From the NCBI GenBank assembly GCA_002331145.1, contig DCYT01000002.1:23337-87336 (forward strand): 64,000 nucleotides of DNA, read 5' to 3'. The translations under genes were made by a program, and so were the position numbers. The stretch is from Candidatus Minusculum obligatum. GTDB taxonomy: Bacteria; Patescibacteriota; Minisyncoccia; Phycocordibacterales; Phycocordibacteraceae. Shown here in pieces: positions 9,200 through 62,971 of this stretch (position 1 is its first letter; each line of letters begins with the position of its first letter). Below the pieces are notes generated by a model that did no database searches, had not been told where the DNA came from, and saw only the letters and a program-made list of their open reading frames with translations.

Positions 9200-9201
9200 A
9201 T

Positions 9202-15802: not shown

Positions 15803-15853
15803 CGGGCTTTCACTTGCCTTTTTATGCATATATGAGTATAGTGCTAGCCACAT

Positions 15854-23824: not shown

Positions 23825-23874
23825 CGAATAGATTTTAGAGGAGCATAGTGAAGAAAGAAAAGGGAGGTAAAGAC

Positions 23875-45374: not shown

Positions 45375-45375
45375 T

Positions 45376-47284: not shown

Positions 47285-47393
47285 AAGCTGAAATAGGGGA
47301 AATACACAATAACAGTACAAAAAACAATACAATGCAAGTATTCTAAAATGGCTCTACAAAGGGCCTTTTTTAGTATAAAAGAGGTCTAAACAC

Positions 47394-47423
47394 TTGACAA
47401 ATACTACATATATGTATTATAAT
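47394..47423 (+). promoter_or_regulatory. Sigma-70 promoter TTGACA-18-TATAAT upstream of the 3D-domain gene
   Basis: TTGACA at 47394-47399 and TATAAT at 47418-47423. Confidence 0.45.
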
Positions 47424-47468
47424 AGCGTCGCATTAATCTAATACGGTATATTAGTACCTTAATTCATT

Positions 47469-48029
47469 ATGATGCATCTTATTACTTCGATCGCTATTGC
47501 GAGTTTTTTATTTGGAGGAACGCCAGTTGCTCCAATCGCAGTAGACAATCTTAAGTCAGCTGAGGAAGGATACTTTCTCGCAGCGCACATTCCAAAAACA
47601 TATACGGTTAAGCTAACTGGATACAACGCTCTTGAGGCGCAAACTGATGAGGATCCATTTACGACTGCTAGTGGTCTATACTCTAATCCTGAGATTATTG
47701 TAGCCAAGAGTCGTGACATCGATCTTCCGTTTGGTACGGTTGTGAAAATTGATTCAAGCAATCGAGAGCTAACAGGAAGTTGTGGTGTAGAGGTGGTGTC
47801 TGAGCAGATTGGATACCGAGTGATCGGAGACGTAACACATGCACGTAAGTCGATGCAGATTGACGTTCTCCTAGATCATACAAAGCCTGTAGACCTAAAC
47901 GGTAAGTTACTAAACCCAAGTATTATTCTTGGAATCTGTGAAGGAGTACAGATTGAGGTTGTCGGAAAGATTGACCTTGATAAAGTCCCTTCAACGCAGA
48001 AAGAACTAGCCAAGCTGATTGAAGGTTAA
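47469..48029 (+). CDS. 3D-domain (MltA-like double-psi beta-barrel) protein with a signal peptide
   Basis: YTVKLTGYNALEAQTDEDPFTTASG...GTVVKIDS...IGDV...IDVLLD carries the conserved Asp residues typical of 3D domains. Confidence 0.65.
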   Translation: MMHLITSIAIASFLFGGTPVAPIAVDNLKSAEEGYFLAAHIPKTYTVKLTGYNALEAQTDEDPFTTASGLYSNPEIIVAKSRDIDLPFGTVVKIDSSNRELTGSCGVEVVSEQIGYRVIGDVTHARKSMQIDVLLDHTKPVDLNGKLLNPSIILGICEGVQIEVVGKIDLDKVPSTQKELAKLIEG

Positions 48030-48036
48030 ATCAAAT

Positions 48037-48066
48037 AAAAAACACCCCCTTGCGGGGGTGTTTTTT
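48037..48066. terminator. Bidirectional intrinsic terminator between the 3D-domain gene and convergent cspA
   Basis: aaaaaacaccccc-ttgc-gggggtgtttttt: a perfect 13-bp stem with A6/T6 flanks. Confidence 0.8.
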
Positions 48067-48069
48067 GAT

Positions 48070-48270
48070 TTATGCTCGAGCTACGTTTGTGGCGTTAGGT
48101 CCCTTAGGTCCGTCACTTACCTCAAATGTAACTGCGTCTCCTTCTCGAAGGTCGTTGAACTCTGTATCGTTAAGCTCGTTTGCGTGGAAGAAAAGATCCT
48201 TGTCTCCCTCATCCGGCTTAATGAATCCAAAACCTCGGTCAGTAACACGAGCGATTGTTCCTTTGTTCAT
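48070..48270 (-). CDS. cspA: Cold-shock protein
   Basis: GTIARVTDRGFGFIKPDEGDKDLFFHANEL carries RNP1/RNP2 motifs. 66 aa. Confidence 0.9.
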   Translation of the reverse strand: MNKGTIARVTDRGFGFIKPDEGDKDLFFHANELNDTEFNDLREGDAVTFEVSDGPKGPNATNVARA

Positions 48271-48369
48271 TTCTGCAAGAGAAATTATCTACTAACTCAA
48301 AACCTTGGTAGAAAAATTTCTCACCAGAATGCTTTGATTGGTGCACAGTAGTATGAAAGTCTCTGAATG

Positions 48370-49146
48370 TCAATAGAGTTTTGCCCAAAAGGGGATAGAG
48401 AAGAGTCTTCTATACAATCCAATTTTTGTTCGGTGAATAGAGAGAGCAAACGCCTTTGTTCCAAAAGTGCTTCCAAGACGCATGGCAAGGGTCCTCATGT
48501 ATGTTCCAGAGCCAACTACTGCTCGTATTTTGAGTACTTGGAAGCCTCTATGTGTATTAGGAAGGAGATTTTTCCATTCTTCACGTATTTCATCTTGCCT
48601 GAAATCTGCACCAAGAGCTTTTTCTGGAAGAGTTGAACGGGGGATAGAAGAGAGTCTATCTTGTATATAGTTTATAAGGTATGCAGATGAGATAAATCGC
48701 GTATCCATAAGTTCTAGGTGATAAACAGTTTCCTCATGTGTTGGAATTTCAATAGTGTCGAGTGTCTTTTCAAGTGCGTATACAAAAAGAGGTTTTCCAT
48801 TAACTGGTTTTGATGAAAAGTGCGGATATTCACGAACGTGAGTACCAAGCTCAGACCTCAGTGCTCTTTGAATAATATTATTTGAAAGCCGTGTTTCTTG
48901 TAGGGCTTCTTTGGGAAGGCCAAGCATGTCTCCTGTATCAGTTTCAATATCAAGAAGCACTTCGATAATGTACTCCTTATCAAGTCCTAAATATTTTTCC
49001 CTTCGCTTTGTTTCTTCTCCTGTTAGCACAAGAAGTTTTCCGCTTGCCATAGGGTCAAGACGTCCAGCATAGGTCGCTTTTTCTTTTGTAGACCGCCTGA
49101 TTGCTTCAAGTGGAGTTTCTCCAACTTTCTTATTAATAACTTTCAT
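48370..49146 (-). CDS. truB: tRNA pseudouridine synthase TruB-like
   Basis: YAGRLDPMASGKLLVL (catalytic Asp) and LDKEYIIEVLLDIETDTGD (KxY...TDTxD). Start set at the ATG at 49146, which overlaps the TGA of the upstream gene (ATGA). The ORF track gives a 26-codon upstream extension. Confidence 0.75.
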   Translation of the reverse strand: MKVINKKVGETPLEAIRRSTKEKATYAGRLDPMASGKLLVLTGEETKRREKYLGLDKEYIIEVLLDIETDTGDMLGLPKEALQETRLSNNIIQRALRSELGTHVREYPHFSSKPVNGKPLFVYALEKTLDTIEIPTHEETVYHLELMDTRFISSAYLINYIQDRLSSIPRSTLPEKALGADFRQDEIREEWKNLLPNTHRGFQVLKIRAVVGSGTYMRTLAMRLGSTFGTKAFALSIHRTKIGLYRRLFSIPFWAKLY

Positions 49147-49646
49147 AATTTTCTTGCATCGTATGCCCAATGAATGAGTGATTGGCGTTGTTTTGGTCTG
49201 CAAGAATAATCTTTTCTTCTGCAATTTTTAACAACTTGTGCAGCATGTCGCTTGTACGCTTCCCATCGCTTAATTTGTCGCTCATCATCTTCATGCCGTC
49301 GTCCCATATAGTATCTGCAATACCATTGGAACCATCCTCGAGGATCATCTTTATGTATCCAGCCTTTTTCTCTCCAAACAGAAAGAGGTTGTGATGCATT
49401 AAGCCCAAAGTAATTTAAATCTTTGTACCGTTTTTTATCCGGAGAGAGTTTTGCTTTTGTAAACCAGCTCTTTGGGAATTCTTTTCCACCATCTGTCATA
49501 TATAGTCCTCCAAAAGAACCAAGCTCCAACATTTCTTTTGGAGTAAGGTTTGGCTTAAAGTCTTTGTGAAAATTTTTCCCCTCGGGTTCTGTGAGGTAGT
49601 ACGTATAGTTTTGAAACATGTCACGCACAACAATCTTTTTTCTCAT
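49143..49646 (-). CDS. Hypothetical basic protein (167 aa) translationally coupled to truB
   Basis: Conserved-looking block GWIHKDDPRGWFQWYCRYYMGRRHEDDERQIKRWEAYKRH. No family assigned. Confidence 0.5.
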   Translation of the reverse strand: MRKKIVVRDMFQNYTYYLTEPEGKNFHKDFKPNLTPKEMLELGSFGGLYMTDGGKEFPKSWFTKAKLSPDKKRYKDLNYFGLNASQPLSVWREKGWIHKDDPRGWFQWYCRYYMGRRHEDDERQIKRWEAYKRHAAQVVKNCRRKDYSCRPKQRQSLIHWAYDARKL

Positions 49647-49687
49647 GCTTCTTAGTATACAAAAAATGGGCTAATAGCCCATTTGTT

Positions 49688-49879
49688 TTACTTACGCCCC
49701 ATTTGCCACCCGTTGAAAGCCATTACTGCGGCCACAACTCCGATAACAAGACTTGCCCACAGAGGGAGGTCATATGTTCCGATTGTTAGATCCCAAGATC
49801 GAAAGAATCGAAGAAGGTGTAGTGCACCACCGATTCCAAAAAGAATGGCAGCAAGATTAAAGAAATCTTTTCTTTTCAT
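49688..49879 (-). CDS. Small hypothetical membrane protein (63 aa, 2 TM)
   Basis: Helices LAAILFGIGGALHLL and LWASLVIGVVAAVMAF. Confidence 0.4.
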   Translation of the reverse strand: MKRKDFFNLAAILFGIGGALHLLRFFRSWDLTIGTYDLPLWASLVIGVVAAVMAFNGWQMGRK

Positions 49880-49903
49880 GTGAATTTTTATTACTTATAA
49901 ACT

Positions 49904-49963
49904 TTCTACGTATACTGAGTGTAGCAATAAAGTGTAGGTATTTCTGTAAATTACGTAGTTTTT
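49904..49963. repeat. Degenerate copy of the TACGTA palindrome family, in a divergent intergenic region
   Basis: ttctacgtatactgagtg ... aattacgtagttttt resembles aactactgagtt / aactacgtagtt from the two perfect palindromes. Confidence 0.35.
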
Positions 49964-49981
49964 GTTGATATACTTTTTTAT

Positions 49982-50389
49982 ATGACATTCATTCAAATAA
50001 TATATTTATATTTTCTTACCATTCCAGTCTTCTTTATTATTGATTTGTTATGGATTGGAGTGATTGCAAAAGATTTTTATCGTAATCAAATAGGATTTCT
50101 TTTAGGCCCAGTCAATTGGGTGGCAGCAATTGTTTTCTACCTTATTTTTATTGCTGGAATCTTAGTATTTGCAGTGCTGCCAGCGCTTGATGCAGGTTCC
50201 TTAATGAAAGCTGTTGTACTAGGTGCCTTCTTTGGTTTTGTTGCATATGCGACATATGATCTAACAAATCTTGCCTTAACAAAAAACTGGCCCCTCATGG
50301 TTACTGTCGTAGACATGATTTGGGGCGCAGTTATTGCAGGTTCAGTTGCAACAGCGAGTTATCTTATTGCAACAAAACTTTTCTCTTAA
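49982..50389 (+). CDS. DUF2177-like integral membrane protein
   Basis: Four TM helices. YDLTNLALTKNWP block. Confidence 0.55.
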   Translation: MTFIQIIYLYFLTIPVFFIIDLLWIGVIAKDFYRNQIGFLLGPVNWVAAIVFYLIFIAGILVFAVLPALDAGSLMKAVVLGAFFGFVAYATYDLTNLALTKNWPLMVTVVDMIWGAVIAGSVATASYLIATKLFS

Positions 50390-50544
50390 ATTCCTGGTGC
50401 AAAGAATTCTCCAAGGAAGAACGGCCAAAGAATGATTGCAAGAAGTCCTTTAAAGAAACTTAGCTGCAAGAACCCAATGGTAAATAGCCATGCAGCAAAC
50501 CAGAATCCTTCAAAGAAATAATGTGTAATTTTTATTTTTTGCAT
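50386..50544 (-). CDS. Small hypothetical membrane protein (about 52 aa from the internal Met)
   Basis: HYFFEGFWFAAWLFTIGFLQLSFFKGLLAIILWPFFLG. Confidence 0.3.
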   Translation of the reverse strand: MQKIKITHYFFEGFWFAAWLFTIGFLQLSFFKGLLAIILWPFFLGEFFAPGI

Positions 50545-50552
50545 ATGTTTTA

Positions 50553-50741
50553 TTATACACTTTCTGCTTTCTCCCACTCCTCATTAAATTTTCCCATCCA
50601 CTCTTTTTTATTTTCTGGCGTTGCTCCCTCAATAATTTCTTTATGATCAGACATATAGTGTGGATGCATTGCATCCATCATATTCTCTGGTGTATCTGCG
50701 GTAAATTCTTTATCACAGTCTGGACATGTCATTTTTTTCAT
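50553..50741 (-). CDS. DUF1059-like small metal-binding protein
   Basis: MTCPDCDKEF...MHPHYMSDH. 62 aa. Confidence 0.55.
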   Translation of the reverse strand: MKKMTCPDCDKEFTADTPENMMDAMHPHYMSDHKEIIEGATPENKKEWMGKFNEEWEKAESV

Positions 50742-50757
50742 ATGCGTTAATTATAAC

Positions 50758-50781
50758 AAAGCCCCGCATGTGCGGGGCTTT
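50758..50781 (-). terminator. Hairpin right after the stop of the minus-strand SurA-N-like gene
   Basis: aaagccccg-catgtg-cggggcttt: a 9-bp GC-rich stem. Confidence 0.5.
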
Positions 50782-50783
50782 GT

Positions 50784-51359
50784 TTACAGTTTGATATCAA
50801 TTTCTGCTCCTTCTCGAAGTTTTTGGATAACTGTTCCAAGGAATTGTTGCATTTTTCCTTGTCCGAGTTCCATTTTTAGTTGCGTTTTTATCTCGTCAAA
50901 TTTAGGCGCTCCTTCCTTTGAAGCAAGATGCTCATCATATAGTTTTTGCGCTTCCTCATCAGTTGCTTCAAGATCCTGTCCCTCAAAGATTTCTTTGTAG
51001 TACTGATCGATAGTTCGTTGCCTTGTGATTGTGTCTTTAAGACCTTCTTTTGTAAGGCTCATTCCTTCAAGTTGCTTTGCAAATGTTTCCTCATCTGGGA
51101 ATTTTGCTGCAATAGCATCAAATTCTTTTTGTACATCTTCATCCTTTACGCTGTATCCTTTCTCTTTTGCTGCAGCAAAGATAAGTTCATCATTTACAAG
51201 CTGCTGTGCCACCATCTTTTCAAACTGAGCGTACTTATCAGCATCAGTTTTATCTGGTGTTGGAATGTTTGGATTGTGAGAGAGCTGTGCCAGCTGTGCA
51301 TCAAGCATCTCGCGTGTAATTTCTGTTCCGTTTACGGTTGCAATAGTCATAGTCTGCAC
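50784..51359 (-). CDS. SurA N-terminal-domain-like chaperone protein with no PPIase domain
   Basis: IATVNGTEITREMLDAQLAQL ... ELIFAAAKEKGYSVKDEDVQKEFD follows the SurA_N / PpiD-N pattern. 191 aa. Confidence 0.6.
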   Translation of the reverse strand: MQTMTIATVNGTEITREMLDAQLAQLSHNPNIPTPDKTDADKYAQFEKMVAQQLVNDELIFAAAKEKGYSVKDEDVQKEFDAIAAKFPDEETFAKQLEGMSLTKEGLKDTITRQRTIDQYYKEIFEGQDLEATDEEAQKLYDEHLASKEGAPKFDEIKTQLKMELGQGKMQQFLGTVIQKLREGAEIDIKL

Positions 51360-51388
51360 AGGCTATCACGTAAGAAGCGCATGGTAAA

Positions 51389-53044
51389 ATGCCATCCATG
51401 ACTCAAAGAGAAGCTCTCGATATCCTAAAGGCTGGCCGAAATGTATACCTTACTGGTCCTGCTGGAAGTGGAAAAACATACGTATTAAATCAATACACAA
51501 AATACCTAAAAGAGCGGGGAGTTGTAACTGCAATTACCGCATCTACTGGTATAGCAGCAACACATATAGGAGGCATGACGATACATTCATGGAGTGGTAT
51601 TGGCATCAAAGATACGCTCTCAGATTCTGACATCGATCTTCTTGTACAAAAGGAACATCTTTTTAAGCGGTACGAAAAAACAAAGGTTCTTATCATTGAT
51701 GAAGTTTCCATGATGCATCCTGAGATGTTTGATGCACTTGATCGACTGGCCAGAGCAATGAAAATGAATGAGAAGCCTTTTGGAGGAATGCAAATTGTAT
51801 TATCTGGTGACTTCTTTCAGCTTCCACCAATAACAAAAGGAGGAGGGAGTATCTATGTAGATAGTTCAAAGGCTTGGAAAAGTATGGATATTCGAGTGTG
51901 TTATCTAGAAGAACAGCACAGACAGCAAGGAGGATCACTGGAAAATATCTTGTCTGAAATACGTGATGGAGAAATTTCATACAGTACACAAGAGATATTC
52001 GAAGAACTTCTCGAGAATAAACAAAGATTAAATGGAGAGCCAACTCGCTTGTATACACACAATGCAGATGTAGACGCTATTAATGAAGCAGAGCTTGAGA
52101 AGCTCGAGGGAGAGCTCTTTTCATACGAAATGGATTCAAGAGGGAAGGCAAATCTTGTAACAAGTCTTTCAAAGAGTATTTTGGCACCTCAATACCTAAA
52201 TATTAAAAAGGACGCAATTGTGATGTTTGTAAAAAACTCTTTTGAAGAAGGGTATGTAAATGGAACTCTTGGAAGAGTTGTTGATTTTGAAGAGGGTAGT
52301 CCTGTTGTAGAAACATACGAGGGAAAGAAAATAACAGTATCTCCTGCAACATGGGAGATTCAAGATGATGGAAAAGTATTAGCTGCGGTAGATCAACTGC
52401 CTATTCGTCTTGCTTGGGCCATAACGGTACACAAAAGCCAGGGAATGAGCCTTGATGCAGTGGAGATGGATCTTTCAAAATCTTTTGTGCCAGGACAAGG
52501 ATATGTAGCACTTTCAAGACTTCGTGATATTGAAGGGCTCACGCTCCTTGGGCTTAATCGCATGGCACTTACTGTGGATCCGTATGTAATTGAACTAAAC
52601 AAATGGCTTTTAGATGAATCTGCAAAATGGTCCAAAAGAATTGCGAAGTTTAGTAAAGAAGAGTTTGTAAAAATGCATGAGGAGTTTGTAGATAGGTGTG
52701 GCGGAACAAATGATGAGAGGGAGATAGAAAAGAACAAGGCAGCAAAAGAATATGAGGGTATGCAGGAGGTAATTCCATCTCACCACAAAACTCTTGTATT
52801 GCTTGAAGAGAAGATGAGTCTCAAAGATATGGCAAAAGAGCGGAAAGTAACAAAAGCAACAATCATTTCTCATCTAGAGAAGTTAAAGAGTGAAGGTGTT
52901 GGAGACTATGAGTATCTAAAACCCAAAGGTCTTGCAGCAATGAAAAAGGTAATAAAAGAAGAGGAGAAATTATCTTCTGCGCACAAGAAGCTGAGAGGGA
53001 AATATACGTACGAAGATTTGAGACTTGCGAGGTTATTTGCCTAG
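51389..53044 (+). CDS. Pif1/RecD-like superfamily 1B DNA helicase
   Basis: Walker A TGPAGSGKTY, LIIDEVSMM, GGMQIVLSGDFFQLPPI, C-terminal AITVHKSQGMSLDAVEMDL and a C-terminal HTH-like tail. 551 aa. Confidence 0.8.
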   Translation: MPSMTQREALDILKAGRNVYLTGPAGSGKTYVLNQYTKYLKERGVVTAITASTGIAATHIGGMTIHSWSGIGIKDTLSDSDIDLLVQKEHLFKRYEKTKVLIIDEVSMMHPEMFDALDRLARAMKMNEKPFGGMQIVLSGDFFQLPPITKGGGSIYVDSSKAWKSMDIRVCYLEEQHRQQGGSLENILSEIRDGEISYSTQEIFEELLENKQRLNGEPTRLYTHNADVDAINEAELEKLEGELFSYEMDSRGKANLVTSLSKSILAPQYLNIKKDAIVMFVKNSFEEGYVNGTLGRVVDFEEGSPVVETYEGKKITVSPATWEIQDDGKVLAAVDQLPIRLAWAITVHKSQGMSLDAVEMDLSKSFVPGQGYVALSRLRDIEGLTLLGLNRMALTVDPYVIELNKWLLDESAKWSKRIAKFSKEEFVKMHEEFVDRCGGTNDEREIEKNKAAKEYEGMQEVIPSHHKTLVLLEEKMSLKDMAKERKVTKATIISHLEKLKSEGVGDYEYLKPKGLAAMKKVIKEEEKLSSAHKKLRGKYTYEDLRLARLFA

Positions 53045-53060
53045 GTAGATGTTGCTATGA

Positions 53061-53090
53061 AAAATAGCCCGCAAAAGGGCTATTTTCTCT
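53061..53090 (+). terminator. Intrinsic terminator after the Pif1-like helicase
   Basis: aaaatagccc-gcaaaa-gggctatttt followed by ctcttg. Confidence 0.55.
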
Positions 53091-53094
53091 TGCT

Positions 53095-53465
53095 CCGTAT
53101 ATATGATGAAATCCGAATGTATTTCAGACGGAGTCTGAAATGAACGGCGAGAGCCGGTGGTGGCCCGTACATACACCTCCGCGAGGTGATCTCCACATAC
53201 TTTCCGCACCGACACGACAAGCTAACGCTCGCCGTGCACAAATAGAATCCTTCTTTGCACTTTTATCCTTTCCTGCGCCCCCATTTTTTGGGAAAGAAGA
53301 AAAGAAGTTTCTATTTGCCTTCTGCTCCGCAGAAGGGGTGCTTGTACCTCCAGGTATGTGTTTACTTCCCCTAGAGAAGCAAAAGGCACTTTCCAGAGCC
53401 TCTAGCGAGGCTTCCAAACGCTTCAATTACACCAATTGAAGCGTTTGAGGGGAAAGTGTGTAGAT
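53095..53465. ncRNA. Candidate structured non-coding RNA of about 370 nt. GC-rich and hairpin-dense. Strand and identity unresolved; RNase P RNA or another housekeeping RNA is possible.
   Basis: Locally GC-rich (about 55-60%) within an AT-rich genome. Lies between convergent genes. Contains at least 6 perfect 6-14-bp stems (for example tttcagac-ggag-tctgaaa, ccttctgc-tcc-gcagaagg, caaacgcttcaatt-acacc-aattgaagcgtttg, cacctc-cgc-gaggtg). The ORFs on both strands (53124..53426 -, 53140..53439 +) are low-complexity and non-protein-like. On the minus strand, GGAGCAGAAGGCAAAUAG and GGUGCGGAAAG resemble RNase P blocks, but their order is non-canonical. Confidence 0.3.
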
Positions 53466-53469
53466 ATTT

Positions 53470-53856
53470 CTAAGCAAGAGCATCAATGCTTTGTTTAAGT
53501 TGTTTTTCTACATCTTGAGCAACACCTTTAAGTATATCTGATTCAACCATACTCATTGCGGCAGAAGGAAGGATAGAAGAAACATATGTATTCTTGTTTT
53601 GTTCATACACAATCACATTACAAGGAAGAAGGAGTCCTATTTCTTTTTCTGCTGAAAGTGCTTTGTGCGCAAATGTAGGATTACATGCGCCAAGAATTGT
53701 GTAGCGATCATAATCAGCGCCAATTTTTTCTTTCATGGTTTTTTGTACATCAATAGTTGTAAGTACTCCAAAACCATTATCAGCGAGTGACTTTTTTACA
53801 GCACCAATTGCCTCATCAAAAGAAAGGGACGTCTTTACGGTGTGACTGTATTTCAT
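53470..53856 (-). CDS. DUF302-domain protein
   Basis: ILGACNPTFAHKALSAEKEIGLLLPCNVIVYE block. 128 aa. Confidence 0.65.
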   Translation of the reverse strand: MKYSHTVKTSLSFDEAIGAVKKSLADNGFGVLTTIDVQKTMKEKIGADYDRYTILGACNPTFAHKALSAEKEIGLLLPCNVIVYEQNKNTYVSSILPSAAMSMVESDILKGVAQDVEKQLKQSIDALA

Positions 53857-54092
53857 GCAAGTTTATTATATGTCACTGCAAACAGATAGAAGGCAATAAA
53901 TGACATAATTGCAGCTTCAATCATCCCTGTTAGTGTTCCAACAATAGTGGGGGAATAGAAGAGGTGCATTTCTTGCATTGCTGAAACTGCAATCGTATAA
54001 ATTCCCAGAGAGTTAAAGATAGTTAGAAGGAGCATGATAAGAGCAGAAACAATTCCTGCTGCATACCCAAGTGCTTTTGCATGTAATTTCAT
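53853..54092 (-). CDS. Small hypothetical membrane protein (79 aa), translationally coupled to the DUF302 gene
   Basis: Two TM helices. ATGA overlap. Confidence 0.45.
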   Translation of the reverse strand: MKLHAKALGYAAGIVSALIMLLLTIFNSLGIYTIAVSAMQEMHLFYSPTIVGTLTGMIEAAIMSFIAFYLFAVTYNKLA

Positions 54093-54170
54093 ATCAGAAA
54101 AGATTTACTTTAATAAAATAGGGGATAAAGAATTGACGTATAATACCCCCTAGGGGTATTATACCTTCTA

Positions 54171-54443
54171 ATGAAGAAAGATATCAAGAAGAGAGTTGTG
54201 CACAGGTTGAAAATCATCGAGGGGCAAGTGAAAGGTTTGCAAAGAATGGCAGAAGAAGAAGAGTATTGTATTAGCATCATTACTCAAGTTTCAGCAATGA
54301 GGCAAGCACTTTCTTCTGTAGAAGACTTAATGCTTGAAAATCACTTACTTACACATGTGGTGAGTCAAATGAAGAGCAAGAAAGGTCAAACGAAAGCAGT
54401 GGAGGAAATGTTGTCCATTTATAAACTTTCAAAGAAAAAGTAG
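54171..54443 (+). CDS. CsoR/RcnR/FrmR-family (DUF156) metal- or persulfide-sensing transcriptional repressor
   Basis: RLKIIEGQVKGLQRMAEEEEYCISIITQVSAMRQAL...LENHLLTHV: Cys in the YC motif, and an H-x-x-x-H where CsoR has H-x-x-x-C. Confidence 0.75.
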   Translation: MKKDIKKRVVHRLKIIEGQVKGLQRMAEEEEYCISIITQVSAMRQALSSVEDLMLENHLLTHVVSQMKSKKGQTKAVEEMLSIYKLSKKK

Positions 54444-54447
54444 ATAT

Positions 54448-55275
54448 ATGAATGCAAAAATACTTGGAATTGGAGCTTTTGTCGCACTACTCATTGCTGG
54501 CTTTGTGTTGGTGCAAGGTGGTGTTCCAGAATCTAAAATGGTTGAAGAGCACAGTGATTCTCTAGAATCATACGAAATGAGTCCTTCACAAGCTGTTAGC
54601 CGAATGCAAAGCAAAGATGATGTTGTGGTTCTTGATGTTCGAACAATTCAAGAATATGAAGAAATTCACCTTCAAAATGCTCTCTTGCTCCCCGTGCAGG
54701 AACTTTCTCAAGCTTCACTTGATGCGATTGGTCTTTCTGACAAAGATCAGGAAATAATTCTCTATTGCAGGAGTGGTGCTCGGAGTAAGACGGCTTTCGA
54801 TATCATGAATTCTCTTGGGTATACAAATATAAAAAGCGTTGCAGGAGGGATGATTCATTGGCAAGAAGATAATTACCCACTTACAGAGGTAGGAAAATTC
54901 AATGAATCAAAGAATATTCAGGAAAGTGACGAAAACACAATGGGTCCAAAGATAAGTGTCGATCGTAAGCTACATGATTTTGGAGAGATTCCTCAATTTG
55001 CAGGTGTAGTACAGACTATGTTTACTGTTACAAATTTGGGGACAGAAACTCTTACTGTTGGCGATATTACAACTAGTTGTAGCTGTACATCAGCAACACT
55101 GTCTTCATATTCTATTGGGGTGGGAGAGAGCGCTGAACTTACCGTTCTCTTTGACCCTGATTTACACGAAGAGCCAGAGGGTGTGTTTACACGAACGGTA
55201 TTTATCCCAAGTAATGACGTGAATACTCCAGAGGCAGAAGTTGCAGTACAAGTCGATATATTAGAAGGAGTTTAA
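54448..55275 (+). CDS. Membrane-anchored rhodanese (sulfurtransferase) domain fused to a DUF1573 Ig-like domain
   Basis: Rhodanese active-site loop ILYCRSGARSKTA. C-terminal DUF1573-like FGEIPQFAGVVQTMFTVTNLGTETLTVGDITTSCSCT. Confidence 0.7.
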   Translation: MNAKILGIGAFVALLIAGFVLVQGGVPESKMVEEHSDSLESYEMSPSQAVSRMQSKDDVVVLDVRTIQEYEEIHLQNALLLPVQELSQASLDAIGLSDKDQEIILYCRSGARSKTAFDIMNSLGYTNIKSVAGGMIHWQEDNYPLTEVGKFNESKNIQESDENTMGPKISVDRKLHDFGEIPQFAGVVQTMFTVTNLGTETLTVGDITTSCSCTSATLSSYSIGVGESAELTVLFDPDLHEEPEGVFTRTVFIPSNDVNTPEAEVAVQVDILEGV

Positions 55276-55286
55276 AATTAGATAAT

Positions 55287-55757
55287 ATGAATAATTACAT
55301 CGTAGGAGCACTAGTTATTGCAGGAGCACTTATTGCAGGAGCAATATTCTTTGTGGGTGGAGGTCCTGTTACAGAAAAGGTTGTGGCATCGGAGATTACT
55401 CTTGAGGCAAACGAGTATGATTTTGGTGACATTGATATTTTTGGTGGAAAGGTAAAAGCAACTTTCCCACTTACAAATACTGGAAGTGCTGATGTGACAG
55501 TGCTGTCTGGAGTTACAAGTTGTATCTGTACAGAAGGAGAAATAGATTCACTTTCCTTTGGCATGCATGGAAGTGATGGCGAGACAGTAATACCGGCAGG
55601 AGAGACAAGGGAGTTGGTTGCAATATATGATCCATTAGCACATGGTCCTGATGGAGTTGGGAAAATAAAGCGACAGTTGCAACTAAAGACAAACTCTTCG
55701 GTAACTGAGTACATCGACGTAAGTTTTACAGGAAATGTAGTAAAGAATGCTGAGTAA
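55287..55757 (+). CDS. DUF1573 Ig-like domain protein with a signal anchor
   Basis: YDFGDIDIFGGKVKATFPLTNTGSADVTVLSGVTSCICT: a paralogous fold to the C-terminus of the upstream protein. Confidence 0.6.
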   Translation: MNNYIVGALVIAGALIAGAIFFVGGGPVTEKVVASEITLEANEYDFGDIDIFGGKVKATFPLTNTGSADVTVLSGVTSCICTEGEIDSLSFGMHGSDGETVIPAGETRELVAIYDPLAHGPDGVGKIKRQLQLKTNSSVTEYIDVSFTGNVVKNAE

Positions 55758-55771
55758 TAAATAATATTCTC

Positions 55772-56725
55772 ATGGATAAAGTAAAAATAGCACTCGTAGG
55801 TATCGCATTCATTCTCTTGTCAATCATGCTTGTTGGAGGATTTAGTCTACTGACTTCTCCTACTATGGTTCCAGGATTTTCTCTGGCATTTTTGGCAGGG
55901 ATATCAATGATTGTGCTTCCGTGTACTTTTCCTCTTGTGTTTATCATTGTTCCTCTTGCGCTCTCAAAACAAAACGTGAAGAAAGGCATCATTATGGCAC
56001 TTCTTTTTGGTCTTGGTCTTACCGTTACATTTACGCTGTATGGTCTAGCACTCGGATGGCTGGGTGGTTTCGTTGGATTGTACAAAGTTGTCAGTGCAAT
56101 GCTTCTTATTGGAGGTATAGCAGCCCTCTTCTTTGGATTGGCAGAACTTGGTTTAGTGAACTTCTCTTTGCCATTTCGAAAAACTATTCTTCCACAGTCG
56201 CTCCAGCAAAAGAATGACTACATACGGAGCTTCTTTCTAGGCTTCTTCTTGGGAAACGCCGGAGTTGGTTGTCCAAATCCAGCCTTCTACATATTGTTTG
56301 GGTACGTTGCCACACTTGGAGATCCTATTACTGGGGCGTCTCTTGGAGCATTACATGGAATAGGAAGAATGGTTCCTCTTCTATTTCTAGTAGTTCTTGC
56401 AATTCTTGGAATAAATATGATGGAAAAGGTGAGTGCATATCAGGAAAGGGTAAAGCGTTGGGTTGCATGGTCGCTTGTTGTGCTTGGAGCATTCATACTT
56501 AACTATGGACTCTTTGGCATGGCATGGTTTGAAAAATCAGGTATTCATGAAGCATGGAATCAGTTCCTTCTTGCGGTAGTTCCAAAAATTGCAGAGTCAG
56601 CAGAGCTTGAGTCAGCTCTGCAGCTTCCGCAGGGTGTTGGTGGTATTATGCCCTGGATAGTTCTTGGTGCGGTTATAAGTGGGGTAATTGTATGGAGTGC
56701 GGTTAAGGCACGAAATAGTAAATAA
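55772..56725 (+). CDS. DsbD_2/CcdA-like thiol-disulfide transmembrane electron transporter (second copy in the window)
   Basis: Cys in TM1 (IVLPCTFPLV) and Cys in a later TM (GVGCPNPAFYIL). About 8 TM helices. Confidence 0.65.
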   Translation: MDKVKIALVGIAFILLSIMLVGGFSLLTSPTMVPGFSLAFLAGISMIVLPCTFPLVFIIVPLALSKQNVKKGIIMALLFGLGLTVTFTLYGLALGWLGGFVGLYKVVSAMLLIGGIAALFFGLAELGLVNFSLPFRKTILPQSLQQKNDYIRSFFLGFFLGNAGVGCPNPAFYILFGYVATLGDPITGASLGALHGIGRMVPLLFLVVLAILGINMMEKVSAYQERVKRWVAWSLVVLGAFILNYGLFGMAWFEKSGIHEAWNQFLLAVVPKIAESAELESALQLPQGVGGIMPWIVLGAVISGVIVWSAVKARNSK

Positions 56726-56727
56726 TT

Positions 56728-56880
56728 ATGACTAACTTTATACAAATAGCATATGCACATGGAGGAGAGGAAGTTGAAGCTGTAACAGCTCTTGATTTCT
56801 CAGGGCCACTTATTGCTCTGGGAATGATTGTTGCAGCAATTATTATTGCAAAAATTATTTCTAAGAAAAAAATAACATGA
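56728..56880 (+). CDS. Small membrane peptide (50 aa) whose stop overlaps the start of the Grx-like gene
   Basis: MTNFIQIAYAHGGEEVEAVTALDFSGPLIALGMIVAAIIIAKIISKKKIT. Not in the ORF track (under 60 aa). TGA/ATG overlap at 56877. Confidence 0.35.
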   Translation: MTNFIQIAYAHGGEEVEAVTALDFSGPLIALGMIVAAIIIAKIISKKKIT

Positions 56881-57134
56881 TTAAAGTAACACTTGTCCGC
56901 CCAGAAGGATGTCATCATTGTAAGGAGGTTAAAAACACACTTGAGGGAATGAGAGATGAATTTCCTGATATTTCAATTGAAGAAATTGATATGGTTACAC
57001 CTGAAGGAAGGGAGCTTGTTCAAAAATATCAGATGCTATCAAGCCCAGGGATTTTAATTAATGATGAATTCTTTGCTTTTGGCGGCGCTACTGAGGAACA
57101 GTTTAGAAAAAAGTTTAACGAAATTAATGGCTAG
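56877..57134 (+). CDS. Glutaredoxin/NrdH-like small thioredoxin-fold protein (CxxC = CHHC)
   Basis: VTLVRPEGCHHCKEVKNTLEGM. 85 aa. Confidence 0.6.
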   Translation: MIKVTLVRPEGCHHCKEVKNTLEGMRDEFPDISIEEIDMVTPEGRELVQKYQMLSSPGILINDEFFAFGGATEEQFRKKFNEING

Positions 57135-57155
57135 GCCTGGTAAAGAATAAAGAAA

Positions 57156-57869
57156 ATGTTGTTGGGAATTAAAAGTAAAAAAGTTGCACTCTTGCGCCAC
57201 TTAGCAATGGCTATTGTTGGGGGATTGCTTGTGTATTTGGTTTGGTCACTTAATGGTACGTGGAGTCCAGATATGCGGTTGTGGAAAGCATTTGGTGGAG
57301 CATCTTTTTTCCTCCTATGGTTTGCTGTTGTTATTGGGCCGTTAGCAAAGCTTCTTCCATCATTTAACTTAATGCTCTCGTATCGTCGCGAGGCAGGAGT
57401 TTGGTTTTTTATCATTGCATTGGTGCACGGATATCTCATTCTTGATGGCTGGGTGCGGTGGAATGTATGGGAATTTTTCGGCTATCAATACTTTACTGAA
57501 GTAGAGATGTATTTAAGAGTTGAGCCTGGGTTTGGATTAGCAAGTTTACTTGGACTTGTTGCTCTCATGTTTGCTCTTGCGCTTGCTGCAACATCTTTTG
57601 ATTGGGCAGTTAATCTTCTAGGTATTACTTCTTGGAAATGGTTGCATATGTTTGCGTACGTTGTGTTTTATTTGGCAGCAATGCATGTTGTATATTTTGC
57701 CTTTATTCATTACACACCTTCGTTTAATAGGCTTGCTATGGGGCTTCCAACAGATTATCCAGATAACCCATTGAAATATTATTATCTCAACGCACTTCTG
57801 AGTGTGTTTGTTTTGCAGACATCTGCTTTTATTGCAACGGTACGTAAAAATAAAAGAGCAAGCTGGTAG
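57156..57869 (+). CDS. Ferric-reductase-type (FRD/MsrQ-like) di-haem transmembrane protein
   Basis: His pair spaced 13 apart on one helix (LHMFAYVVFYLAAMH). His in an earlier helix (IIALVHGYLIL). Six TM helices. Confidence 0.65.
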   Translation: MLLGIKSKKVALLRHLAMAIVGGLLVYLVWSLNGTWSPDMRLWKAFGGASFFLLWFAVVIGPLAKLLPSFNLMLSYRREAGVWFFIIALVHGYLILDGWVRWNVWEFFGYQYFTEVEMYLRVEPGFGLASLLGLVALMFALALAATSFDWAVNLLGITSWKWLHMFAYVVFYLAAMHVVYFAFIHYTPSFNRLAMGLPTDYPDNPLKYYYLNALLSVFVLQTSAFIATVRKNKRASW

Positions 57870-57872
57870 CGT

Positions 57873-58553
57873 ATGGTATTTGAAACAATAATTAAAGGAC
57901 GTAAAAAAGTTGCAAAAGGTACTTGTGAAATAACTTTCAAAAGACCCGAGAAATTTGTATTTAAAGCAGGGCAATATATACAAATTGCCATACCAGAATT
58001 ACTTAGTCCGGATTTAAGGGGTAATTCACGGCTATTTTCTGTCACTTCGTCTCCGGACGATTTAGAAAATATCCGCGTAGTTTTTAGAGTCTCTACTAGT
58101 GGATTCAAACAAACATTGGTGAGTATGCCAGTTGGTGCAACAGTGCAAATTGAACAGGCTGCTGGCAGTTTTGTTTTACCGCAATCACCAAAACAGCAAC
58201 AAATTTTTGTTGCTGGCGGTGTTGGCATCTCTCCATTTATGAGCTACTTCAATCAAGAGAATACTCCATTTGAGAAAGGGCAGACTACTCTTTTTTATGG
58301 AAATCAAAACGAAGAGAGTGCCGCATATGTTACTGAGCTCCGCGCTTTTGCAAAGAGGTATCAATCTTTTTCACTTCAAGAGCTGTATGAAAGACCTTCC
58401 TCTGAATTCTTTAGGAGAAATGCGCAAATGTATAAAGATGCTACGTGGTGGGTGGTTGGGCCACCGGCAATGGTTGGAGTTGTTGTAAACGGACTTCAAT
58501 TAGGGGGTGTGGACCAAAATAATATTATAACTGAACCCTTTGAAGGATATTAG
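57873..58553 (+). CDS. FNR-fold FAD/NAD(P)H oxidoreductase (Fre-like flavin reductase), encoded separately from the FRD membrane domain
   Basis: RLFSVTSSP (RxYS FAD motif), IFVAGGVGISP (GGxGxxP NAD(P)H motif) and a C-terminal WWVVGPPAMV. Confidence 0.7.
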   Translation: MVFETIIKGRKKVAKGTCEITFKRPEKFVFKAGQYIQIAIPELLSPDLRGNSRLFSVTSSPDDLENIRVVFRVSTSGFKQTLVSMPVGATVQIEQAAGSFVLPQSPKQQQIFVAGGVGISPFMSYFNQENTPFEKGQTTLFYGNQNEESAAYVTELRAFAKRYQSFSLQELYERPSSEFFRRNAQMYKDATWWVVGPPAMVGVVVNGLQLGGVDQNNIITEPFEGY

Positions 58554-58557
58554 ACAT

Positions 58558-59328
58558 ATGAAAAATACTTTAGGATTAATTGTTTTTATTCTCGTACTTG
58601 TTGCACTAACTGCAATATTTTTTCTGAATGGTAGAAATACAGAAGTAACAATCGATGAAATATTTTCTGTATCTGCTCAGGATATTAAAGATCAAATTAC
58701 CATTGATCGTGTTGTTATGGACCAGCCAGGATTTATTGTGGCACGAGAAATTATAGATGGAAAACCGGGGCAGATAGTGGAAGTAAGTAAGTATTTAAAG
58801 GCGGGCGAAAATGTTGATGTTGTTATAGGTCTTGCACAACCATTAATTGAGGGGGTTGGTGTGAGCAGCGATCAATTTGATCAAGAAATTGTTGTTGCTG
58901 TGTATTATGATGATGGAGATAAGGGCTTTAATCCGTCTCTTGATTCTCTTGCATATCGTGAAGGGGAAGTGCTCGCACGGTTTGTCAAAACAGGAGTAAT
59001 GGCGCCTGAGTCAGCAGTGGTGCCAAACACTAAGGGTGAAAATATTGATGTTGCTCAAATAGTTACCTATACAGACAGTGGGTTTATTCCTCGGAACAGT
59101 GAAATTTCTTCTGGTGATACTGTTCGATTTATTAATAAGAGCAGTAATCAAATGTGGGTTGCCTCAAATGGGCATCCGGCACATATGATACTTCCAACAT
59201 TTGATCAGTTTAGTGCTTCTTCATATGGTGAAAGTTATGAATACACTTTTGAAAAAGAGGGGGTGTGGGAGTATCACGATCACATAAATGCTAGCCAGGT
59301 TGGTGTCATGTTAGTTCATTCAAATTAA
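58558..59328 (+). CDS. Membrane-anchored protein with a C-terminal cupredoxin-like domain that lacks the canonical type-1 copper cysteine (HDH in place of C..H)
   Basis: GDTVRFINKSSNQMWVASNGHPAHM...YEYTFEKEGVWEYHDHINASQVGVMLV follows the cupredoxin pattern (N.S....H....YEY.C..H..M.G...V) with Cys replaced by Asp. Confidence 0.55.
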   Translation: MKNTLGLIVFILVLVALTAIFFLNGRNTEVTIDEIFSVSAQDIKDQITIDRVVMDQPGFIVAREIIDGKPGQIVEVSKYLKAGENVDVVIGLAQPLIEGVGVSSDQFDQEIVVAVYYDDGDKGFNPSLDSLAYREGEVLARFVKTGVMAPESAVVPNTKGENIDVAQIVTYTDSGFIPRNSEISSGDTVRFINKSSNQMWVASNGHPAHMILPTFDQFSASSYGESYEYTFEKEGVWEYHDHINASQVGVMLVHSN

Positions 59329-59333
59329 ATTAC

Positions 59334-59804: not shown

Positions 59805-59847
59805 GCATGTTATTATTACTTAAATAAAAAAATAAAATATTGTTACT

Positions 59848-60573: not shown

Positions 60574-60577
60574 TCTT

Positions 60578-61099: not shown

Positions 61100-61108
61100 A
61101 TAGCTAGT

Positions 61109-61570: not shown

Positions 61571-61631
61571 TTTTAATGACATAACATTAATTAATGTGTA
61601 AGATTAACAAATAATTGACTAACAAAAATTT

Positions 61632-62372: not shown

Positions 62373-62383
62373 TTAGCCATTGT

Positions 62384-62959: not shown

Positions 62960-62971
62960 TTATTCAGTATT

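Follow-up and report, generated by a model that had tools for sequence, protein, structure and literature searches.

A lineage-specific structured non-coding element, possibly a small RNA gene, at the ends of a copper/redox island in marine Patescibacteria

Small RNAs are encoded at the ends of islands and prophages near tRNA attachment sites, as is known for the island-borne sRNAs of enterobacteria. Among mobile elements, the ends of Tn7-like transposons span approximately 100–150 bp, contain several binding sites and lie in inverted orientation, and the sites of serine recombinases measure ~40–50 bp. In IS110/IS1111 elements, structured bridge (seek) RNAs that combine a conserved scaffold with variable loops are encoded beside the recombinase gene; no RNA guide is known for the large serine recombinase family. 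The genomes of Patescibacteria (CPR) are minimal, at ~0.6 Mb, and their non-coding RNAs and gene exchange are poorly characterised. The locus described here is an 11–14 kb copper/redox island whose recent transfer took place between lineages ~25% apart in their backbone, and a non-coding element at its ends is the subject of this work.

The element resembles island-end sRNAs in being non-coding and structured, with a terminator-like hairpin at its 3' side, a position at the extreme island end by a tRNA gene and a narrow range, but it occurs in two inverted copies, one per island end, and is longer than most at ~375 nt; its invariant blocks around a hypervariable segment are unusual. As with Tn7-like ends and MITE-flanked composites, inverted long non-coding modules bracket the moved cargo and one end lies by a tRNA gene. 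In contrast to those systems, there are no transposase genes, no target-site duplication and no repeated short binding-site motifs here, and the module is 226–375 nt long with exchangeable inner (5') parts. REP/BIME clusters likewise place GC-rich perfect hairpins between convergent gene ends, whereas the hairpins of this element are mutually unrelated, recur nowhere else in the 64-kb window (the window being the whole stretch of 64,000 nt that was analysed), and form a fixed 226–375 nt array with two copies per genome rather than a dispersed short repeat.

In the window, the stop codons of a PIF1-type helicase gene (plus strand, ending at 53044) and a DUF302 gene (minus strand, ending at 53470) are separated by 425 nt. 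Homology of this region, copy A, to related copies begins and ends at 53466 and 53092, so that the limits given in the original prediction, 53095–53465, were almost exact. Identity to three related sequences (L009/L010/L022) is 91–92% across ~370 nt. The element is discrete, non-coding, hairpin-rich and under selection, and the non-coding, hairpin-rich stretch that had been noticed is thus real and extends over 53092–53466. Its GC enrichment holds but is modest (0.47–0.495 against 0.42 for the window), and its description as the longest non-coding interval is approximately right, as the bigger gaps between long ORFs hold called small genes. The window was also correctly described as free of tRNA and rRNA genes, judging from the Rfam gathering-score search and ARAGORN. 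We conclude that 53092–53466 is the A copy of a structured, lineage-specific non-coding element of ~375 nt in marine Patescibacteria, the parts of which are listed in Table 1.

Table 1. Coordinates of the element, its parts and its copies. Positions are those of the window unless a contig is named; for all element parts the sense orientation is by convention the window minus strand (the putative strand).
Feature	Position	Strand	Description
Whole element, copy A	53092..53466	-	Homology limits against L009/L010/L022, L011, L005 and L021/L017, plus fold z
5' domain of the closest relatives' A copies	53337..53466	-	Hairpins A and B plus closing stem
Closing stem of 5' domain	within 53337..53466	-	CACUUUYCC/GGAAAGUG
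Hairpin A	53415-53447	-	14-16 bp, perfect; in 5' domain
Hairpin B	53398-53411	-	In 5' domain
Hairpin C, CCUUCUGC-GGA-GCAGAAGG	53318..53336	-	Inverted repeat I7; A copies only
H2 5' arm	53296..53317	-	Invariant outer stem CAAAUAGAA at 53309-53317 plus variable inner arm
H2 inner 5' arm	53296-53308	-	Pyrimidine-rich, varies
Invariant block 1	53228..53295	-	Covers the loop at the apex of long hairpin H2 and its purine-rich 3' arm
Hypervariable segment H3	53155..53227	-	Closed by ACGGCGAG/CUCGCCGU; contains GGUGCGGAAAG
Invariant block 2	53092..53154	-	Hairpin H4, AU-rich tail and terminal CGGAGC
Hairpin H4	arms 53121-53129 and 53133-53141	-	Loop UCC; inside block 2
Terminal CGGAGC	53092-53097	-	Matches tRNA-Asn 3' end
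Terminator-like hairpin, AAAATAGCCC-GCAAAA-GGGCTATTTT	53061..53086	.	Inverted repeat I4; A and T runs on flanks
Copy A core	53092-53317	-	This genome
Copy B core	L026 12127-12352 = window position 64510-64735	+	This genome
UBA2103 copy A core	L005 8613-8838	-	By homology
UBA2103 copy B core	L021 9668-9893	+	By homology

The element is modular, with a 226-nt core and exchangeable 5' parts that come in three unrelated versions across the copies; homology between A and B copies begins exactly at CAAATAGAA, and the 5' domain starts 3–5 nt past the stop codon of any upstream gene. Two inverted copies per genome, one at each end of the 11–14 kb Cu/redox island (DUF302...PAP2), were found in two genomes, and the island is 94–97% identical between these genomes while their backbone is 75–77% identical. 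On these identities, the island has evidently been transferred laterally and recently. Homologues with sharp boundaries are present in five or more related genomes or strains, including UBA2103 (complete genome, CP174360.1), so the conservation in relatives whose absence was to count against the original prediction was looked for and found. Copy B of this genome is located ~510 nt beyond the window end and adjoins tRNA-Asn, which is the right-hand neighbour in both genomes. In relatives, tRNA-Asn carries a group I intron. The sequence beyond CGGAGC(C) is different in every genome compared; CGGAGCC is a 7-mer identical to the tRNA-Asn 3' end, L022 carries a tRNA 3' fragment 190 nt further downstream, and another tRNA-3'-end-like string, CGCGGAG, is found inside H3. 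Regarding helicase synteny, UBA3533 and UBA2103 have other genes directly 3', with the UBA2103 copy 3 kb further (blastn). In the B copies of three genomes, TATAAT precedes the first hairpin by ~7 nt, and on the other strand this 5' hairpin with TATAAT likewise has the look of a terminator; copy B of this genome lies ~250 nt after an M23 gene with its own TATAAT upstream. Between B copies, a hairpin loop is flipped to its reverse complement (GGCGGG vs CCCGCC).

Outside these relatives, blastn in 'distant' mode gave no match in phages and a single 33-nt chance match in plasmids, and four scans of IMG/VR with 20–25-mers gave no match. Contig ends inside the element (L001, L002, L003, L011, L027) had raised the idea of a dispersed repeat, which was rejected, the two-copy core being what breaks short-read assemblies. 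A REP or MITE family was rejected as well, as no other copy and no internal repeat was seen in the window or any locus.

The original prediction had suggested RNase P RNA as a possible identity of the region and tmRNA or a novel RNA as options. What stands is a structured, selected non-coding element that is possibly a novel RNA; the RNase P and tmRNA identities do not. No Rfam 15 model matches either strand, be it of RNase P, tmRNA, 6S or SRP RNA or of any further family. At the gathering score, the whole window contains no match at all, and the 11 matches at E<=10 in 52900–53600 on both strands, none of them RNase P or of the tmRNA clan, are plant and animal miRNA hairpin look-alikes at less than half their cut-offs. 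The Infernal/Rfam check that the prediction had set for itself thus returned no covariance-model match, an outcome that it had counted against its candidate. ARAGORN found 0 genes in the window and no tmRNA, and with respect to tmRNA-like ends, the terminal CGGAGCC matches the tRNA-Asn 3' end over 7 nt only. The two RNase P-like strings do exist as strings, and their order is indeed reversed relative to the canonical one. However, GGAGCAGAAGGCAAAUAG is the 3' half of a hairpin plus the start of the next, and GGUGCGGAAAG, proposed as a conserved block, lies in hypervariable H3 and differs in 5 of the 7 copies, where GGUGCGGGAAU, GGUGCGGGAGC or GGUGCGGAAGU is read instead. No P4-type long-range pairing is conserved, and the only long-range stem in the predicted fold of the window copy cannot form where the 5' part is a different one. 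Because the element is present in two copies per genome, on a transferred island and with exchangeable 5' parts, it does not fit a housekeeping RNA. Its size (~375–400 nt), its high predicted structure and two strings of 11–18 nt resembling consensus blocks are what it has in common with bacterial RNase P RNA (RF00010/RF00011), and the probability that it is a permuted or divergent form of RNase P RNA, a tmRNA or another housekeeping RNA is practically nil. A false RNase P candidate is therefore removed, whichever reading of the element holds.

Gene callers annotated ORFs here in several assemblies, and one frame is open across the core in 3 of the 5 copies examined, which would agree with a protein encoded by the 99-aa plus-strand ORF (53140–53439), the 100-aa minus-strand ORF or a short basic peptide, MGARERIKVQRRILFVHGE..., with its start in block 1. 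In line with the earlier remark that these ORFs look non-protein-like, the 99-aa ORF stands alone, as a singleton, in a set of 5.8 billion proteins and has no Pfam match, and a six-frame query as well as protein sets of 5.8 billion and 1.84 billion sequences gave only mis-called ORFs overlapping the element. In the window copy and UBA2103_B, an indel or stop interrupts the other frames, the variable sites are distributed over the codon phases as 15/12/16 with no 3-periodicity, and 131 nt lack even one synonymous change against 18.6% variable third positions nearby. A coding function is hardly credible on these grounds.

The minimum free energy of the element is −135.8 kcal/mol on the plus strand (z −7.08) and −151.7 kcal/mol on the minus strand (z −8.37), with 0 of 100 shuffles as stable on either strand, and it has the lowest energy per nucleotide and the most negative z among the 11 inter-ORF gaps of the window. 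It should be noted that two small-ORF intervals in the window reach z of approximately −4.5, so the genome baseline is not zero. The many perfect short stems noticed from the letters were recovered as 6 perfect inverted repeats of 8–14 bp with loops of 3–6 nt; the main hairpins are perfect Watson-Crick palindromes that fit either strand, or DNA, equally well. H3 shows no extra stability on either strand compared with shuffles (z −1.2 to −1.7). It is ~10 kcal/mol more stable on the minus strand in all copies, but a strand call from G-U pairs was rejected, as the shuffles show a composition effect: the minus-strand energy advantage is due to G+U composition. The terminator-like hairpin past the 3' end is bidirectional by shape and common to the convergent helicase gene, and a consensus terminator scan made no call at 53061–53086. 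UBA2103 copy A also has a similar hairpin 3', before a different next gene. The recombinase-free copies have a hairpin with a U-run 3' in three sequence versions (window, UBA2103_A, L022), and because all three are symmetric, they would serve the opposite strand too.

Variation among the copies is distributed very unevenly. Block 2 has 0 variable columns of 63 in the four orthologous copies, compared with 18.6% at the third-codon sites of neighbour genes (P = 2.4e-6), and a single loop change across all seven copies. Block 1 (UUUCCCAAAAAAUGGGGGCGCRGGAAAGGAUAAAAGUGCAAAGAAGGAUUCUAUUUG...) has 1 variable column of 68 (P = 1.4e-5 against the same sites) and is identical between the A and B copies in three genomes. 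Such blocks of 68 and 63 nt with 1 and 0 variable sites against 18.6% indicate purifying selection on the nucleotide sequence. In H3, 29 of 73 columns are variable, an excess (P = 2.1e-5), and its haplotypes are mosaic, tracking neither locus nor genome. A diversity-generating retroelement was considered as a source and rejected; changes from copy to copy are not specific to adenines, and the neighbourhood encodes no reverse transcriptase. The H2 5' arm varies at 6 of 15 columns, and of the three B copies, U2103_B and L017_B have a different inner H2 5' arm, which nevertheless remains able to pair with the invariant 3' arm. Within the 5' domain, variable columns fall on 5 of 102 paired and 13 of 54 unpaired positions (four sequences; Fisher P = 0.0009), and hairpins B and C have variable loops on constant stems, the loop of hairpin C reading GGA, GAA or GCGAA in the alignments. 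The comparison with relatives proposed earlier to look for covariation yielded none that was usable among 6–7 close sequences, in which stems are kept and the loops differ: for six core copies, RNAalifold gave a covariation term of −0.55 kcal/mol with one compensatory pair of 58, and most base pairs never vary, making them uninformative. Wobble-type substitutions in the 5' domain split 2 to 3 between strands, with approximately no strand preference.

A recombinase gene directly follows the core, in the same orientation, in some relatives. This gene encodes a large serine recombinase with Resolvase, Recombinase and Zn_ribbon_recom domains, is adjacent to the core in L009, L014, L017–L019 and UBA2103_B, and is absent at window_A, L026_B, UBA2103_A and L022_A, so that this genome has no recombinase at either copy; tblastn of the protein against the window gave only a non-coding overlap. 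The gene is flanked by 90-bp perfect inverted repeats and splits the palindrome beside the 3' end of the core; it looks like a later insertion into that palindrome. The 32-bp dyad TTCAGAwTTTGGGAnATyTCCCAAAwTCTGAA is a candidate site for the enzyme (P0123). An apparent N-terminal extension of the recombinase (P0122, P0124) was discarded as a gene-calling artefact over the element, the true start being MKFFLYIRKST.

We tentatively favor, at somewhat less than an even chance, the view that the element is a gene for a small structured RNA, located at the island end and belonging to none of the known families. Such a gene would be transcribed outward from the end of the transferred Cu/redox island, on the window minus strand, with the transcript starting at or just past the DUF302 stop and ending at the hairpin and U-run at 53086–53061. 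Its product would join a replaceable 5' domain to the 226-nt core, in which two invariant blocks, as a scaffold or binding surface, would enclose the fast-changing segment, and the second copy would be transcribed outward from the other island end, toward tRNA-Asn. It may act as an island-borne regulatory or boundary RNA, and its 3' end (CGGAGCC plus palindrome) could double as a recombination hot spot that is used by the serine recombinase cassette in relatives. We infer transcription, its strand and a constraint acting on RNA from the fold stability, the non-coding status, the homologues with sharp boundaries, the invariant blocks, the avoidance of stems by substitutions, the preserved pairing of swapped H2 5' arms, the 3' hairpins with U-run, the TATAAT of the B copies and the retention of both copies in two genomes with 75–77% identical backbones. 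Counted against an RNA gene are the lack of covariation, the strand-neutral palindromes, the G+U composition effect, the split of wobble changes, the B-copy TATAAT hairpin that reads as a reverse terminator, the narrow distribution, and the failure of the scans to call a promoter or terminator; the sigma-70 scan found no promoter at the start of copy A, where TAGAAAT and TAAAAT boxes overlap upstream stop codons. If it is an RNA, the element represents an unclassified family and a candidate for covariance-model libraries.

The same observations can be read at the level of DNA. The island would then be non-autonomous and either mobile or invertible, with the inverted 226-nt cores as its long terminal inverted repeats or as its boundary or recombination sites, the invariant blocks as protein-binding sites and the hairpins as dyad-symmetric operators or recombinase sites. 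We consider this reading, the main rival, rather unlikely, though one to be taken seriously. In two genomes, each core coincides exactly with a junction between island and backbone, the two cores being inverted and at the ends of a segment that moved between these genomes, and the contrast in identity between island genes and backbone, the divergence of all sequence past CGGAGC(C), the 7-mer shared with the tRNA-Asn 3' end together with the tRNA fragment in L022, and the recombinase cassette that splits the palindrome all agree with it. So do the perfect palindromes lacking covariation, the flipped loop of the B copies and the mosaic variable haplotypes, which suggest recombination between copies. 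However, no transposase or integrase domain was found among the island genes, no cognate recombinase at either copy here, and no target-site duplication or direct repeat at the island ends and flanks; the shared neighbour tRNA-Asn fits in-place inheritance equally well; and the invariance spans long stretches without dyad symmetry in a 226-bp core, as against ~40–50 bp for serine-recombinase sites. If it is a DNA element, it points to a mechanism of island mobility in CPR without a recognisable transposase.

An RNA without a function of its own would be expected if the element were a passive transcription insulator or long 3' UTR, a stack of terminator or stabiliser hairpins transcribed together with the gene before it, DUF302 for copy A and M23 or PAP2 for copy B. 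This is improbable in our judgment: the element always starts a few nucleotides from a co-oriented stop (DUF302, a 135/145-aa gene, PAP2), no separate promoter was detected in the window, and terminator-like hairpins at the end accompany many perfect GC-rich ones, but a terminator stack leaves unexplained the 131 invariant nucleotides, partly predicted to be single-stranded, and the same 226-nt core follows unrelated genes at the two island ends, with copy B here starting ~250 nt past the M23 gene behind its own TATAAT. Decay is a still poorer account. The mosaic architecture with three unrelated 5' parts and the tRNA-3'-end-like strings CGCGGAG in H3 and CGGAGCC at the end could be taken for a functionless remnant, either a pseudogene fragment or integration scars at a tRNA gene, and the sole metagenome match of a 20-mer falls in the GT4 glycosyltransferase motif GVLVPPG. 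Yet tblastn of the protein that the 20-mer CCTGGAGGTACAAGCACCCC had matched (in L013) against the region gave nothing beyond the 7 residues of the search word, so the match is due to chance and the idea of a GT4 pseudogene was abandoned. Conservation of the blocks far exceeds that of neighbour synonymous sites, which largely refutes a remnant; both copies are kept in two divergent genomes, and stems are conserved while loops vary. We therefore regard this explanation as very doubtful.

Returning to the RNA gene, a more elaborate version holds that the element belongs to a new RNA class with a conserved scaffold and a variable segment, located at both mobile-island ends and taking part in island recombination; we give this only a slim chance. 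The CUCCG loop of H4 or the variable segment H3 might pair with CGGAGCC of the island ends and the tRNA-Asn 3' end, or the RNA might direct or license the adjacent serine recombinase of relatives, which would make it the first RNA partner for a serine recombinase. Like the bridge RNAs of IS110/IS1111, the element combines a conserved scaffold with a fast-evolving internal segment and has a recombinase downstream in some relatives, but the enzyme is a large serine recombinase that is absent at both copies of this genome, and with four copies lacking it, the linkage is not the obligate one of a bridge-like system. Two short matches seen by eye, CUCCG in the H4 loop with CGGAG and a 9-nt identity, UUUCCCAAA, are both at chance level. 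Two further relatives of the recombinase in IMG/VR (L015, L016) are partial fragments at contig ends.

The element occupies the interval between two convergent genes, for a PIF1-type helicase and a DUF302 protein (see the table), and contains six perfect inverted repeats with arms of 8–14 bp and loops of 3–6 nt. Folded as RNA, its plus strand reaches −135.8 kcal/mol (z −7.08) and its minus strand −151.7 kcal/mol (z −8.37), values equalled by no shuffle, and of the 11 gaps between long ORFs in the window this one ranks first both for low energy per base and for negative z. The original prediction of a hairpin-dense non-coding stretch is thus borne out, with coordinates that are near-exact against the homology limits of the related copies; the GC enrichment that it also described is real (0.47–0.495 versus 0.42 for the whole window) but only modest. 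Positions 15578–15853 and 23825–24122 also fold well (z −4.2 and −4.7, respectively). A small ORF that carries a Shine-Dalgarno sequence is present in each, one of 62 aa and membrane-like, the other of 91 aa, neither with a Pfam match, and these two stretches are probably small proteins, not RNAs.

No tRNA, tmRNA or any Rfam family was found in the window at gathering score. With permissive filters (E ≤ 10), positions 52900–53600 returned only plant and animal miRNA-precursor and similar hairpin models, none of which scored even half its cut-off, and these weak matches are driven by a 14-bp perfect hairpin at 53415–53447. The element belongs to no Rfam family. RNase P RNA and tmRNA, two of the identities first put forward for it, were therefore rejected: neither Rfam search gave such a family, and every membership feature that can be tested here is lacking. 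As for a protein, the 99-aa ORF on the plus strand matches itself alone in the protein collection and has neither a homologue nor a Pfam domain. When all six reading frames of the element were joined into one query, a single protein cluster was retrieved (P0122, a 580-aa large serine recombinase), which matches one element frame at 76% identity over its 41 N-terminal residues. This N-terminal extension stems from a mis-called gene start and is the translation of a homologous element copy upstream; the true start, MKFFLYIRKST, lies 75 codons further in. A phmmer search of the matching frame against 1.84 billion representative proteins gave only one further mis-called ORF, P0125. Of five copies, two have an indel or a stop that breaks the element frames, and the counts of variable sites across the copies are 15/12/16 for codon phases one to three. 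Given the singleton ORF, the mis-called ORFs as sole matches, the broken frames and the phase counts, a protein-coding element was discarded, in agreement with the initial view that its ORFs look non-protein-like.

The host is a member of the Patescibacteria, and its helicase is 93% identical at the protein level to that of UBA3533 and 81% to that of UBA2103, which has a complete genome of 579 kb. Copies of the element were located by blastn and nhmmer against all fetched loci. Homology boundaries set a 226-nt core from 53317 to 53092 on the minus strand, taken as sense by convention of this analysis, whereas the parts upstream of the core are exchangeable between copies. The 5′ domain of the window (53466–53337) and hairpin C are common to the closest relatives, of these two parts UBA2103 copy A has only hairpin C, and the B copies carry a different 5′ hairpin with TATAAT before it. 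Downstream, the sequence beyond CGGAGC(C) differs in every genome. L026 comes from the genome of the window or from a strain almost identical to it; its element region matches the window at 100% identity, with an offset of 52383 (window position minus L026 position), so copy B lies at about 64510–64735, some 510 nt past the window end. Five short-read contigs (L001, L002, L003, L011 and L027) end within the element because it is a two-copy repeat with identical blocks of 63–68 nt. The sole metagenome match to a 20-mer of the element (L013 2990–3009) lies inside a GT4 glycosyltransferase (GVLVPPG motif) and was dismissed as a chance match.

Features of the element, its copies and their surroundings (window positions unless a locus is named; block variability from four orthologous A copies)
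Feature	Location	Strand	Details
PIF1-type helicase gene	51389–53044	+	C-terminal HTH_40 domain
DUF302 gene	53856–53470	−
Core part 1, long hairpin H2			outer stem CAAAUAGAA/UUCUAUUUG
Core part 2, segment H3	53155–53227		closed by ACGGCGAG/CUCGCCGU
Core part 3, perfect hairpin H4			AUUUCAGAC-UCC-GUCUGAAAU
Core part 4, AU-rich tail			ends in CGGAGC(C)
Block 1	53228–53295		1/68 columns variable, P 1.4e-5 (deficit)
Block 2	53092–53154		0/63 columns variable, P 2.4e-6 (deficit)
Copies	L009, L010, L022–L025, various locations		full length, 91–92%
Copy	L011, contig end within element		partial
UBA2103 copy A	L005 8613–8838	−	87%
UBA2103 copy B	L021 9668–9893		3′ 226 nt only
Copies	L014, L017–L019, various locations		3′ 226 nt only
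Second copy, window's genome or near-identical strain	L026 12127–12352		core (226 nt), 90% over 228 aligned nt
Beyond CGGAGC(C)	window, UBA2103_A		hairpin + U-run
Beyond CGGAGC(C)	L022		other hairpin + U-run
Beyond CGGAGC(C)	L026		palindrome up to tRNA-Asn
Beyond CGGAGC(C)	L009, UBA2103_B, L017_B		recombinase cassette
Large serine recombinase gene	L021 9888–11472; L017 6119–7703; L014 1245–2829		Resolvase + Recombinase + Zn_ribbon_recom; 90-bp inverted repeats on both flanks
tRNA-Asn gene split by group I intron (RF00028)	L021 11473–12090; L017 7700–8050	−	after CUGU of anticodon loop; 71.6 and 92.4 bits

As a near-neutral yardstick, we took the third-codon positions of neighbouring island genes from the four genomes concerned (window, L009, L022 and UBA2103); 18.6% of these positions are variable. 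Among the four orthologous A copies, blocks 1 and 2 are near-invariant against this yardstick, which marks the element as functional rather than as a decaying scar; save for one loop base, both blocks are identical in the B copies too. The inner 5′ arm of H2 is enriched in changes (6 of 15 columns, P = 0.044). An excess is also seen in H3 (29 of 73 columns, P = 2.1e-5), but only as long as the element is counted with the young island; for copies of longer residence, H3 would simply be unconstrained. In the identity matrix, the H3 haplotypes are mosaic, sorting neither by genome nor by locus, pointing to recombination or gene conversion between copies.

The two cores lie at the exact edges of a Cu/redox island, both directed outward. 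At the left edge, this genome has the helicase, a hairpin, copy A (leftward) and DUF302, followed by a 79-aa membrane protein, a CsoR-type repressor, rhodanese/DUF1573, DsbD, a glutaredoxin-like protein, ferric reductase, DUF7282, DSBA, PAP2, DSBA, DsbB and an M23 peptidase. After a spacer of ~250 nt, the right edge (L026 12127–12485, window-equivalent ~64510–64868) begins with the inverted copy B (rightward) and CGGAGCC, which lead into a near-perfect palindrome of 59 nt; the tRNA-Asn(GTT) gene beyond it has no intron and lies on the opposite strand. The final 7 nt of the core are identical to those of this tRNA-Asn, and both heptamers form the outer arms of the palindrome. The layout is the same in UBA2103, where 14 kb separate the two copies. 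The island genes (53470–64000) are 93–97% identical to UBA2103 in nucleotide sequence, whereas in the flank compared (45000–53044) the helicase and 3.5 kb upstream are only 75–77% identical, which indicates a recent lateral transfer of the island between Patescibacteria lineages.

In UBA2103, L014 and L017–L019, CGGAGCC and a 90-bp leader separate the core from a large serine recombinase gene, beyond which lie the 90 bp again as a perfect inverted copy and then the 3′ end of tRNA-Asn. The 90-bp repeats, each holding a 32-bp dyad, are 100% identical within each genome and differ by 1 nt between genomes, and the recombinase ORF as called crosses the right repeat and reaches into the tRNA gene. 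The whole has the look of a minimal recombinase cassette that entered a palindromic terminator. In L026, which has no recombinase, the outer parts of both repeats abut as a single palindrome centred on the dyad TTCAGAATTTGGGAGATTTCCCAAATTCTGAA; we infer that the cassette is an insertion into the palindrome and hence a neighbour of the element, not part of it. Neither the recombinase nor the 90-bp repeat nor a tRNA fragment is present in the window. In the genomes with the 90-bp repeats, the tRNA-Asn is split by a group I intron, and the split genes of L021 and L017 were missed by ARAGORN. L017 is a 732-kb scaffold related to UBA2103, and the UBA2103 intron region also has a 104-aa Cys-rich ORF.

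The element shares its position with island-end sRNAs, the pairing of inverted copies with long transposon ends, and the scaffold-plus-variable layout (in some genomes beside a recombinase) with bridge-type RNAs, but the defining features of each system are lacking. We place it, unclassified, in the broad category of lineage-specific structured non-coding elements at the boundaries of genomic islands. That it is a gene for a small structured RNA, placed at the end of the island, is the best single explanation, which we adopt tentatively; a strong rival, somewhat unlikely in our estimate, is that the copies are long terminal inverted repeats acting as DNA. Within the 5′ domain, 5 of 102 paired positions vary versus 13 of 54 unpaired ones (P = 0.0009), and in hairpins B and C the loops vary while the stems are constant. 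The inner 5′ arm of H2 is replaced in two of three B copies (U2103_B and L017_B), and the new sequence still pairs with the invariant 3′ arm. These patterns fit RNA hairpins, but DNA dyads as well.

Several results speak against a firm RNA call. RNAalifold gave compensatory changes at only 1 of 58 pairs and a covariation term of −0.55 kcal/mol. The minus strand is favoured by 10–16 kcal/mol, an effect of G+U composition, because H3 folds no better than its own shuffles on either strand. Wobble-type substitutions are divided between the strands, consensus scans called no promoter or terminator in the window, and the hairpin with TATAAT at the start of copy B also reads as a terminator on the opposite strand. 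It is very unlikely, in our estimate, that the element acts as an RNA in recombination at the CGGAGCC core, perhaps with the serine recombinase as its partner.

Several minor observations concern the surroundings of the copies. In close relatives, four extra genes, for a SEC-C-motif protein, an HTH protein, a 224-aa protein and a 135/145-aa protein, lie between DUF302 and the element (L009 3388–5963; L022 3317–5922). Only the last 117 nt of this block are left in L011 (3388–3504) and none in the window; the losses are nested deletions, each of which ends at the 5′ edge of the element. On the 3′ side of copy A in L022 (6299–6530), a 48-nt hairpin, a 16-nt fragment GTCCTGGTCGCGGAGC identical to the tRNA 3′ end of L017 and another terminator precede a DnaG-type zinc-ribbon gene and a ParB_N gene, which suggests another integrated element at the CGGAGC junction. 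Upstream of copy A in UBA2103, a GC-rich stretch of ~600 nt (L005 8900–9500, minus strand) has only short, arginine-rich ORFs of 69–98 aa and a strong hairpin, GCCCCACC-CUCCCA-GGUGGGGC. Diverged paralogous segments of 67–92% identity (37807–38196, 45394–45767, 55302–55352 and 59902–60188) connect several thioredoxin/DSBA/DUF1573-type genes in and out of the island; redox modules have been duplicated. A 12-nt TAACTACGTAGT-like unit, in tandem and palindromic copies between gene ends at 9201–9237 and 39065–39101, 30 kb apart, may be a common operator or terminator motif.
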